This document shows positions 43,163-46,012 of a stretch of 64,000 bases of DNA, one piece after another. This DNA is from Candidatus Nomurabacteria bacterium. Its GTDB lineage: Bacteria; Patescibacteriota; Minisyncoccia; Phycocordibacterales; UBA9973. The translations under genes and the position numbers were made by a program. Below the pieces are notes generated by a model. That model worked only from the letters and a program-made list of their open reading frames with translations, ran no database searches and was not told where the DNA came from. The DNA lies in NCBI GenBank assembly GCA_023267195.1, contig JAHFNT010000005.1, forward strand, positions 14,875 to 78,874. Reading direction: 5' to 3'. How positions within the stretch are numbered: position 1 is the first letter of the stretch; each line of letters begins with the position of its first letter.

Positions 43163-46012
43163 ATGAGGTTGTATGATCATAAGAAAATAGAGAAAAAATG
43201 GCAAAATATTTGGGAGAAAAAGGGGATTTATCATGCTATAGACCCGGTCAAGGGCGGGGCAAGTAAACCAAAAAAGCCCAAATATTATAGCTTGATAGAA
43301 TTTCCATATCCCTCAGGGGATGGTTTGCATGTGGGTCATCCCAGGCCATATATCGGGATGGATATAATCTCAAGGAAAAGAAGGCTGCAGGGTTTTAATG
43401 TTTTGTACCCGATCGGCTGGGATGCGTTTGGTCTTCCGACGGAAAACTTTGCCATAAAGACAGGTAAGGATCCACGATTTGTTACGAAGAAAAATAGCGA
43501 AAATTTCAAACAACAGATACAATCGCTTGGAATTTCTTTTGATTGGTCTCGAGAAATAAATACAACTGATCCGAAATATTATAAATGGACACAGTGGATA
43601 TTTTTGCAGTTTTTGAAGAAAGGATTGGCCTATAAGGCCAAAATGAATATCAACTGGTGTCCGAAGGACAAGATCGGTCTTGCGAATGAAGAAGTTATAG
43701 GCGGTTGTTGCGAGCGATGTGGGGCACAGGTAGAAAAAAGAGAGAAAGAGCAGTGGGTGTTGGCGATCACTAAATATGCAGAGCGTTTAGATAAAGACTT
43801 AGATGGTGTGGATTATTTGCCACAAATTAAACTTGCTCAAAGAAATTGGATAGGGAAGTCGGAGGGTGCGGAGATAGAATTTAAGATTACGGATTATGAG
43901 TTAAAAATTAAAGTTTTCACCACTCGTCCCGATACTATTTTCGGCGCGACTTATGTTGTTTTAGCACCGGAACACCAATTGATCAATGACCTAAAATCAA
44001 GAATTTCCAACTGGACTGAAGCGGAAGATTATATTAAAAAAACAAAACAAGAAACAGAGATAGAGCGCACGGCAGAAAATAAAACAAAAACAGGAGTAGA
44101 GTTAAAAGGGGTAAAGGCGATCAATCCCGGGAGCAAAGAAGAAATTCCTATCTGGATTGCCGACTATGTGCTTGCAAATTATGGCACAGGGGCTATCATG
44201 GCTGTGCCGGCGCACGATGAAAGGGATTTTGAATTTGCGAAGAAATATAATTTGGAGATAAAGCAAGTCATTCAACCAATTTTTGGTATAGAAAATAAAA
44301 GAAAAGAAGCAGTACACAGAAACACTATTACTGGTATTGTGAAAAGTCGTGACGGGAAGAAAATTTTAATGTTAAAATGGAAAGATTATGATTGGTTAAG
44401 TGGTGTAATAGGAGGTATTGAGGGTGATGAGTCTCCAGAACAAGCAGCGGAGCGAGAAGTGTTAGAAGAAACAGGATATAAAACTAAAGCTATTTTTGTT
44501 TCCCCAATAAAAGTTGAATCGCATTTTTTTGCTGAACATAAAAATGAATGGCGTTCGAGGATAGACACCCCAGTTGTTTTGGAGTTGGTGGATGAGAAGC
44601 CAGAAATAATTTCCGAGAAAGAACAAGCAAAACATGAGGTAAGGTGGGTTGATATAAAAGAAGTTTTTGCTTCAACTATGTTTGGAAACAATAAACTTGC
44701 AATAGAATTAGCACTTTCACGAAGTGCCTATACTGGTTTTAATGGAGACCAAAGAGACTCCTTAATAAATTCTGGCAGATTTGATGGAATGGATTCCCAA
44801 AAAGCCAAGAAAGAAATTATAAAATTTGTTGAGGGAAAAGAAAAAACCACTTTCAAGCTTCGCGACTGGATATTTTCCCGTCAGCGATATTGGGGTGAGC
44901 CGATACCGGTTGTACGATGCGAGAAATGCGGGTTAGTTCCTGTGCCGGAGAAGGATCTGCCAGTAGAACTTCCAAAAGTGAAAAATTATCAGCCGACGGA
45001 TAGCGGAGAATCGCCACTCGCAAATATTTCAAAATGGGTCAATACTAAATGTCCTAAATGTAAAGGCAACGCAAAAAGGGAAACAGATACCATGCCAAAC
45101 TGGGCAGGATCCAGTTGGTATTATTTACGATACACAGATCCCAAAAATTCTAAAGAGTTTGCTGGTAAGAAAAATTTGAAATATTGGACGCCGGTAGATT
45201 GGTATAACGGAGGAAATGAACACACCACACTTCATCTTTTATATTCACGTTTTTGGCATAAATTTTTATATGATTTGAAACTAGTGCCCACAAGCGAGCC
45301 CTACATGAAACGTACCTCGCATGGGATGATTTTAGGCGAGGGGGGCGTAAAGATGTCCAAATCGCTAGGTAATGTCATAAATCCGGACGAAATGGTAAAA
45401 ATTTACGGCGCGGATACGCTTCGCATCTATGAGATGTTTATGGGGCCATTTGATCAATCTGTAGCTTGGTCTACAGAAAGTATTATTGGCGCGAGGAGAT
45501 TTATAGAAAAAATTTGGCGGTTGCAATTTAAGGTGGGTAAAACAAGCGATAGTGGAATAAAGAAAATTTTAAATAAAACCATAAAAAAAGTTTCTGAAGA
45601 TATTGAGAATATGAATTTTAATACAGCAATTTCTTCTATGATGATCTTGGCAACTGAGATAGAAAATGAAAAAAGTGTCTCAAGAGAAGACTATAAAAAA
45701 TTCTTGCAAATACTTTCTCCCTTTGCGCCGCATATAACCGAAGAATTGTGGAGCTTGCTCGGAGAGAAAAAATCTATCAATCTTTCCACTTGGCCAAAAG
45801 TGGATGAAACTTTTCTCAAGGATGAAGAAATTAAAATCGTGATTCAGATCAATGGCAAAGTCAGAGCGCAAATTATTGTGAAAGCTTCTGATCCAGAAGA
45901 AAAGATAAAAGAAAGAGTTTTTAGCGACCCCAGCGTGTTAAAACATTTAGGGAACAAGGGGATCAAAAGAACAATTTACATTAAAAATAGACTTATCAAC
46001 CTTGTGGTTTGA
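43163..46012 (+). CDS. leuS: leucyl-tRNA synthetase with an inserted Nudix hydrolase domain
   Basis: HIGH motif [8 protein letters not shown], KMSKS (VKMSKSLGN), CP1 editing TTRPDT...AVPAHDERD, and a LeuRS C-terminus. An extra ~150 aa (nt ~44295-44765) contains the Nudix box [23 protein letters not shown]. Confidence 0.9.
   Translation: [949 protein letters not shown]

Follow-up and report, generated by a model that had tools for sequence, protein, structure and literature searches.

The window analysed here, a stretch of 64,000 nucleotides from a Candidatus Nomurabacteria bacterium, carries a leuS gene (43163..46012, + strand, stop codon included) whose product, a leucyl-tRNA synthetase (LeuRS) of 949 residues, almost certainly contains a complete Nudix domain. 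This domain is seated in a surface loop near the end of the CP1 editing domain of an otherwise normal enzyme. The conclusion rests on the profile score of the inserted domain, its predicted fold and the conservation of its catalytic residues. The first-pass annotation, read from the letters of the window, had described just this arrangement, and its account of the architecture stands. Judged from its sequence, the domain belongs to a distinct Nudix subfamily that is tied to aminoacyl-tRNA synthetases in bacteria of the candidate phyla radiation (CPR) and in DPANN archaea.

The Nudix insert and its LeuRS host

The open reading frame (ORF) is a single uninterrupted one, and outside the insert its product is collinear with the LeuRS of Thermus thermophilus (1H3N; 724 bits with phmmer). 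Residues 2-371 match T. thermophilus residues 2-363, and the correspondence resumes at residue 533, the equivalent of T. thermophilus residue 382. The 161 residues in between (372-532; 44276..44758, + strand), made up of a linker, the Nudix fold and a second linker, stand in place of an 18-residue CP1 loop, T. thermophilus 364-381. These limits lie within about 20 nt of those first estimated by eye (nt ~44295-44765), and the collinearity with bacterial LeuRS that had been claimed on either side of the insert is borne out. The insert is also set apart by its G+C content at third codon positions (GC3), which is 0.23 against 0.40 and 0.37 in the flanks.

Pfam family PF00293 matches residues 390-503 (44330..44671, + strand) with 46.3 bits in the full protein and 50.3 bits for the insert alone, about twice the gathering score of 21.1. 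AlphaFold models the region confidently as a Nudix fold, with an α/β/α sandwich at approximately residues 384-520 and predicted local distance difference test (pLDDT) values of 88-96. The canonical Nudix box that had been noticed in the insert, GX5EX7REUXEEXGU, is located at residues 417-439 (44411..44479, + strand); the 64-kb window has no other. Motif and conservation together identify E432, E435 and E436 as its catalytic glutamates; these three residues, and G417, G418 and G438 with them, show conservation of 90% or more in the 90 members of the clade compared.

From its sequence, the window domain is probably an active pyrophosphohydrolase. The alternative that it has become non-catalytic and regulates LeuRS as a nucleotide sensor, or through a structural or dimerising function, in the manner of NrtR-type regulators, is very improbable indeed, since the catalytic residues of the box are all retained in the window copy and in almost every single-copy insert. 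Such strict conservation of the REVLEETG segment would not be expected for pure binding.

Could the arrangement be an artefact, whether through a motif arisen by chance, a frameshift or the misassembly of a Nudix gene and leuS into a chimera? The one observation in favour is the low GC3 of the insert, which puts it in the lowest 1.6% of coding windows of the same size in this stretch. Against this, the gene is read in one frame without stops, the Pfam score is far above threshold, and the insert is under purifying selection. An identical protein (P0008), flanked by the same genes, is encoded on a 14.6-kb ENA contig that was assembled independently. The same junction recurs in 36 species-representative genomes, and of the 120 nearest LeuRS homologues 108 have PF00293. 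We therefore reject these explanations, which the first-pass annotation had itself named as grounds for refutation, with near certainty. An intein or other self-splicing element was rejected as well: the insert, which starts at ...VIQ|PIFG, has neither a Cys, Ser or Thr at its start nor a His-Asn-Cys/Ser/Thr end, and its fold is Nudix, not Hint.

The host protein belongs, on sequence criteria, to the bacterial-type LeuRS enzymes, with its aminoacylation and editing signatures intact. Its match to the TIGR00396 model (leuS_bact), split in two by the insert, reaches 997.7 bits where the cut-off is 548.4, and Pfam recognises the class I core, the PF13603 editing domain and an anticodon-binding domain as well as the Nudix domain. 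The PF13603 match (residues 227-376, 220 bits) covers only profile positions 1-146 of 185. The N-terminal ~80% of the CP1 editing domain, residues 227-371 (43841..44275), precedes the insert. It contains an intact T-rich motif, TTRPDT (residues 253-258, 43919-43936), and the editing stretch with conserved Asp residues (residues 341-355, 44183-44227). Upstream lies the HIGH-type class I signature, HVGH (residues 56-59, 43328..43339), which aligns with that of T. thermophilus LeuRS. The rest of the protein follows the insert as residues 533-949 (44759..46009), comprising the last CP1 segment, Zn-binding CxxC pairs, KMSKS (residues 730-734, 45350-45364), and the anticodon-binding and C-terminal domains; all these features are on the + strand. 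HVGH, KMSKS, TTRPDT and the conserved editing Asp residues are shared with the bacterial enzymes of T. thermophilus (1H3N/2BYT) and E. coli (4AQ7), as are the bacterial position of CP1 and the presence of the C-terminal domain. A difference is seen just before KMSKS, where the leucine-specific domain of T. thermophilus LeuRS (about residues 582-636), which also precedes KMSKS in E. coli LeuRS, is missing from the window protein (residues about 727-730, 45340-45350).

Distribution, insertion sites and other passengers

A search for LeuRS homologues among 5.8 billion proteins, from which the nearest 120 were examined, yielded the 108 with PF00293; this count and those of the genome scan below are lower bounds. 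The carriers include proteins long public, from Candidatus Nomurabacteria GW2011_GWA2_43_15 and RIFOXYB1_FULL_39_16, and many from Candidatus Paceibacterota. Identities of 70-83% to named homologues suggest a CPR bacterium of the Paceibacteria/Nomurabacteria kind as the source of the window. Many are named at NCBI merely 'class I tRNA ligase family protein', a label showing that the insert degrades the automatic annotation of an essential leuS gene. The fusion had at first been thought undescribed. In one sense that view survives, as a full-text literature search found no description of a LeuRS-Nudix or any other synthetase-Nudix architecture, and a Nudix domain inside CP1, the alternative sites and the multiple copies have no described counterpart in the literature searched. 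The fusion is, however, not rare. The sequences are public and carry automatic Pfam labels, and what is new is the recognition and interpretation of the architecture.

A profile of the Nudix module was also scanned against one genome per GTDB species, giving at least 80 loci, whose architecture was determined by tblastn with three LeuRS segments and ORF tracing. The module occupies the same site as in the window in 36 of these loci, and another LeuRS site in five loci of Saccharibacteria (L029, L032, L034, L039, L047). The loci come from Paceibacterota, Saccharibacteria, Berkelbacteria, Moraniibacteriota, Buchananbacteria and others, and from DPANN archaea (L009 from Pacearchaeota; L013, L017 and L023 from Woesearchaeota). 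The labels 'Fimivivens' (L022) and 'Bacillales' (L055) may be binning errors. The survey of relatives that had been suggested thus reveals a recurrent junction. An exhaustive search with a hidden Markov model (HMM) of 1.84 billion representatives at 50% identity gave 234 matches at E <= 1e-10; the best 150 of these divide into 105 with LeuRS segments, 31 short proteins that stand free and a remaining 14 (other proteins or fragments).

The same Nudix family is found at no fewer than four sites in LeuRS. In addition to the CP1 loop used in the window, it is inserted after the first CP1 strand (L029, L034, P0144), before the QRNWIG hinge (P0203, P0130) and within the Zn-binding KCPKCKG region (P0172). 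Some synthetases carry it at two sites (P0138, P0144, P0171), some as a tandem pair (P0140, P0141, P0149), and P0128 and P0130 have three copies; in such multi-copy proteins one copy frequently has a degenerate Nudix box. In P0203 and P0130 the editing motifs are themselves degenerate, with SAHFEA in place of TTRPDT and KCSAHDERD replacing a further conserved motif, which suggests from sequence that this lineage has lost post-transfer editing. Separately, in P0043 and P0077, which have no Nudix domain, the AHD motif is altered to ADD or SDD.

The association with synthetases extends beyond insertion into LeuRS. On an archaeal contig (L003, with TFIIB and S8e nearby) an insert-free LeuRS gene is followed after 10 nt by a gene for a 160-residue Nudix protein, 52% identical to the window module, and in L004 and L005 the same LeuRS C-terminus lies directly upstream of the free Nudix gene. 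All three free archaeal copies with DNA at hand thus directly follow leuS. For free-standing family members away from leuS, no consistent neighbour genes were found. The family is also present in five prolyl-tRNA synthetases (ProRSs) of DPANN archaea (P0262 and its relatives P0278-P0281), class II enzymes that accommodate it between their anticodon-binding and C-terminal domains; it is absent from the other 115 related ProRSs among those listed.

Two further observations concern these loci. The DPANN-like LeuRS of L003 (5328-7991) is a hybrid: its body is bacterial-type, with CP1 in the bacterial position (TIGR00396, 898 bits, residues 11-582), and its C-terminal half is archaeal-type (TIGR00395/PRK12300, residues 529-887). 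In a Staskawiczbacteria genome (L035, 5402-5851), an ORF resembling a LAGLIDADG homing endonuclease stands immediately upstream of a free-standing member of the family.

In two Absconditabacteria-like contigs (L001, 1-1598; L002, 3-2105), gene callers stop just after the Nudix domain, as if LeuRS were split. This interpretation was rejected, since the frame is continuous under a recoded genetic code, and it is the recoding that makes gene callers fragment these leuS-Nudix genes. Each gene reads as one frame only if TGA is taken as Gly and CGA/CGG as Trp, the latter at conserved Trp positions such as that in RNWIG; in L001 all four in-frame stops are TGA at conserved Gly positions. This reading matches the recoding that has reportedly been found in Absconditabacterales. 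Both proteins have in addition a second insert of ~140 residues (L001, about nt 1290-1598; L002, about nt 760-1180; ...TIETRALNPEE..RYFGNVKVGDILEF...), for which no Pfam match was found; its proposed identification as an ASCH/PUA-like domain is unsupported by Pfam.

Nudix is not the only passenger. Nudix-bearing LeuRSs may also contain a complete Ham1/ITPase domain (P0176, 197 bits), a HAD phosphatase (P0132, P0160), an alpha/beta-(Ser) hydrolase (P0142, P0214, P0251) or nuclease domains of the DUF559/REase type, and P0052 and P0083 are among the passenger-bearing homologues listed. These domains are seated at the start of CP1, after the Nudix domain or in the C-terminal half. The LeuRS of CPR lineages has, by sequence, the appearance of a general insertion platform.

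This versatility bears on what we see as the strongest rival to a role linked to the synthetase, namely that the module is a piggy-backed house-cleaning enzyme, a MutT/NudB-like sanitiser of oxidised or non-canonical (d)NTPs that is uncoupled from leucylation. Lodged in permissive loops of a large, essential and constitutively expressed protein, it would gain co-expression, stability or genome economy. That the same scaffold hosts Ham1/ITPase, HAD and alpha/beta-hydrolase domains speaks for this explanation, as do the many sites and variable copy number, which imply that no precise geometry is needed, and the fact that the sole Nudix box of the 64-kb window lies in LeuRS. One would, however, expect to meet a house-cleaner mostly as a free gene with differing surroundings. 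In fact, 70% of the best 150 representatives are inside LeuRS, the free archaeal copies keep to the position after leuS, and the further host, ProRS, is again a synthetase and not a random large protein. We consider this explanation rather unlikely, but only a little less likely than the role proposed below.

Selection on the module, its loss and its probable exchange

Within LeuRS the module evolves under constraint. The ratio of non-synonymous to synonymous substitution rates (dN/dS) is 0.07-0.13 for the insert, like the 0.06-0.10 of the LeuRS body, indicating that the module is functional and not decaying. Two types of module can be distinguished, and in both of them the catalytic residues of the Nudix box are invariant or nearly so. 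Outside the box, fused and free forms share R15, F84, K89, R93, E116, H120 and W124 (insert numbering).

The distribution of the two types does not follow that of their hosts. LeuRS bodies 70-83% identical to that of the window carry a 'type B' Nudix domain only 27-44% identical to the window's 'type A'. Type A is found also in P0009, P0010 and P0011 (79-93%), in the distant LeuRSs L006-L008 (55%), in the recoded L001 and L002 (about 45%) and in free DPANN genes (45-52%). Differential loss from a tandem pair was considered as a source of this discordance and is unsupported, as no multi-copy protein has a type A copy.

Synonymous divergence (dS), several-fold lower in the insert than in the LeuRS body, is consistent with exchange of the module. 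Between the window and P0009, dS is 0.47 for the insert and at least 1.7 for the body; between P0011 and P0010 the values are 0.29 and 1.6-2.6. The fraction of identical codons at conserved residues is likewise higher in the insert than in the body, 0.79 versus 0.53 (p = 6e-8) and 0.86 versus 0.55 (p = 5e-12). The cassette has probably been exchanged by recombination more recently than its hosts diverged, a conclusion from sequence that stays short of proof because AT-rich third positions inflate chance codon identity and because the tract of elevated identity overruns the insert.

Loss is also evident. LeuRSs without a Nudix domain, with bodies 79-83% identical, are interleaved among the carriers. 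Their junctions are heterogeneous, which points to several independent losses, and some are over-deletions that have taken flanking CP1 residues too. On the sequence record, then, the module is an accessory one, acquired, duplicated and lost, and probably also exchanged, among LeuRSs that are not far apart in evolution. Its dispensability in close relatives is a further point for the house-cleaning explanation.

Such rapid turnover, with module types so divergent inside bodies so similar, is a pattern typical of conflict-related genes, and for this reason it counts in favour of another rival, in which the module is a conflict-driven accessory for tRNA-end repair or immunity. It would act on a tRNA or on a nucleotide toxin, the targets being a 5'-triphosphate, an NAD or Np4A cap, a pyrophosphate or ADP-ribose added by a toxin to the 3'-CCA, or inhibitors that mimic the adenylate. 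The lower synonymous divergence of the insert, the recurrent losses, the duplications and the degenerate copies fit this scheme, as does the seat of the Nudix domain on CP1, to which the 3' end of the tRNA binds. Structural neighbours of the Nudix domain moreover include RppH and two decapping enzymes, AvrM14 and DIPP1. RNA binding by the Nudix domain is nevertheless a presumption only, and the codon-identity signal is partly confounded by base composition, as noted above. In ProRS the module does not sit in an editing domain but separates the anticodon-binding domain from the C-terminal one; the surroundings of leuS in the window show no toxin, antitoxin or defence genes; and the family was not found on viral contigs. 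These contigs yielded generic Nudix-box matches only, and a phage origin of the family was rejected. We regard a repair or immunity function as quite improbable, and its more elaborate form as slightly more so. In that form the cassette would clear nucleotide-type damage or blocks, adenylate-mimic antibiotics among them, from tRNA or from the synthetase itself; its quick exchange, duplication and loss would mirror an arms race of episymbiotic CPR and DPANN cells, and LeuRS would be, in a broader sense, a docking platform for interchangeable hydrolases.

Substrate, proposed role and genomic surroundings

What might the Nudix domain hydrolyse? Curated family HMMs do not assign the window module to a characterised subfamily, since no threshold was reached. 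The RppH equivalog models (PRK00714 series) match the box alone and reach about 21 bits, where their cut-offs are 116-241, and the MutT 8-oxo-dGTPase model (NF008044 / TIGR00586) gives 18.6 bits against 148. E. coli NudB, a dihydroneopterin triphosphate/dATP pyrophosphohydrolase, is the sole curated family that aligns over nearly the full domain (profile 14-146 of 151, in 25 of 25 members scanned), and its structure (2O1C) is the best sequence match in the PDB, at about 25% identity. This match again favours the house-cleaning explanation, against which stand the unmet thresholds for MutT and for NudB itself (NF006961; 36.9 bits, cut-off 103). Unlike the situation for NudB, there are no folate-pathway genes around the window leuS.

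Structural comparison gives a different emphasis. The neighbours that rank high are the Aquifex Ap4A hydrolase aq_158 (3I7U), Chlamydia CT771, T. thermophilus Ndx1, E. coli RppH, DDP1 and Rv2985, with small margins over other Nudix enzymes; AvrM14 and DIPP1 come in addition. Taken from a predicted model, these comparisons give a slight preference to ApnA, polyphosphate and decapping enzymes. The identity of the window module to 3I7U, Ndx1, CT771 and RppH is only 16-24%, and the LeuRS-Nudix family differs from the ApnA/RppH enzymes in having a motif of its own, [ST]xF[FY]xxxKxxxR...ExxxH(E/D)xxW, and in being embedded in a synthetase where those enzymes are free-standing. ApnA hydrolases are said to have an aromatic residue, a Tyr, about 16-18 positions after the box. 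In the window module an ESHF[FY] motif places F/F (F/Y in relatives) at +16/+17, with Phe where this rule has Tyr.

The role that we tentatively favour, on sequence and modelled structure, is that of a tethered hydrolase in the vicinity of the synthetase, which may clear it of dinucleoside polyphosphates or of similar, aberrant nucleotides. Hydrolysis of the Ap4A type, which the first-pass annotation had listed among the possible roles, thus stays the leading candidate, on the slight preference of the structural comparison. The protein would be bifunctional, a full bacterial-type LeuRS with a catalytically competent Nudix pyrophosphohydrolase on a loop of its editing domain. Held on the mobile CP1 domain, the Nudix unit would act as an independent, Mg2+-dependent hydrolase, cleaving a nucleoside-diphosphate-X compound made or met at the synthetase. 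Ap4A and Ap4N (diadenosine tetraphosphate and its counterparts with other nucleosides) are classic synthetase products, formed when ATP or another NTP takes the place of tRNA in the reaction with the aminoacyl-adenylate, and dinucleoside polyphosphates of this kind, or related aberrant nucleotides, would be the likeliest substrates. Their hydrolysis would return usable nucleotides to organisms unable to make their own. The Nudix domain would not be needed for leucylation or editing; relatives without it, and its variable position and copy number, imply that it is independent of both chemistries. That both enzymes are active, what the substrate is and what tethering would bring are all inferred.

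Two considerations lead to this proposal. The repeated, independent joining of the family to LeuRS, at several sites and by operon adjacency, and to ProRS implies a functional link to synthetases and not random shuffling. Ap4A or Ap4N is suggested because LeuRS and ProRS have in common ATP, the aminoacyl-adenylate and the tRNA acceptor end. That the substrate is ApnA-type or derived from the synthetase is possible, though less likely than not. Any role specific to CP1 or to LeuRS is weakened by several features of the sequences: the module is spread over at least four sites, it also occurs in a class II ProRS and as a gene of its own behind leuS, sister LeuRSs carry Ham1, HAD and alpha/beta-hydrolase domains in the same or other loops, and close relatives have lost the module.

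There are precedents for the joining of a small enzyme to an adenylate-forming or nucleotidyl-transfer enzyme in NadM-Nudix (NMN adenylyltransferase/ADP-ribose pyrophosphatase) and IleRS-GNAT (NF040702), the models of both of which give weak matches in the curated-family scans. Eukaryotic synthetases with appended domains are a further precedent. NadM-Nudix and IleRS-GNAT are end-to-end, fixed fusions, whereas in LeuRS-Nudix the enzyme lies within a loop, at several sites and in one to three copies, with turnover of the cassette.

The neighbours of leuS in the window, YchF, a methyltransferase, a DUF5671 protein, a TPR protein, MurJ and an ABC transporter, give no functional clue. Some other genes of the window are described here in their own right. 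An ORF of 112 residues (41698-42036, - strand), which adjoins the methyltransferase gene on the independent contig too, has two predicted membrane-like segments and an acidic C-terminal tandem repeat, EEIQEDV, in about four copies; its Pfam matches (DUF948, SLATT_6) are weak and sub-threshold. A 900-residue protein (38093-40795, + strand), probably located at the cell surface, has DUF5122 beta-propeller repeats, Flg_new/InlB B-repeats and, at its C-terminus, a peptidoglycan-binding domain. A cluster at 34420-37230 (+ strand) encodes an FMN-binding protein, an ApbE flavin transferase and an NQR2/RnfD-like membrane domain fused to an NAD-binding oxidoreductase domain, and is a redox module unusual for a CPR genome.

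Aminoacyl-tRNA synthetases are among the most conserved enzymes. To our knowledge, new catalytic domains in them are rare and have usually led to new biology, such as editing, signalling or resistance. The Nudix insert described here would be a third catalytic centre of LeuRS, housed in its proofreading domain in much of the CPR and DPANN radiations. The insert has been gained several times independently and is kept under purifying selection, yet it is lost, and apparently exchanged, like an accessory gene. The soluble-enzyme size of the protein and the existence of standard Nudix substrate panels make its role cheap to probe. Were the substrate a by-product such as Ap4A, LeuRS-Nudix would be the first synthetase equipped with a hydrolase for its own by-product, with implications for how nucleotide-auxotrophic symbionts handle alarmones and nucleotide salvage; were it an RNA end or a toxin, the insert would represent a new kind of immunity of the translation apparatus.

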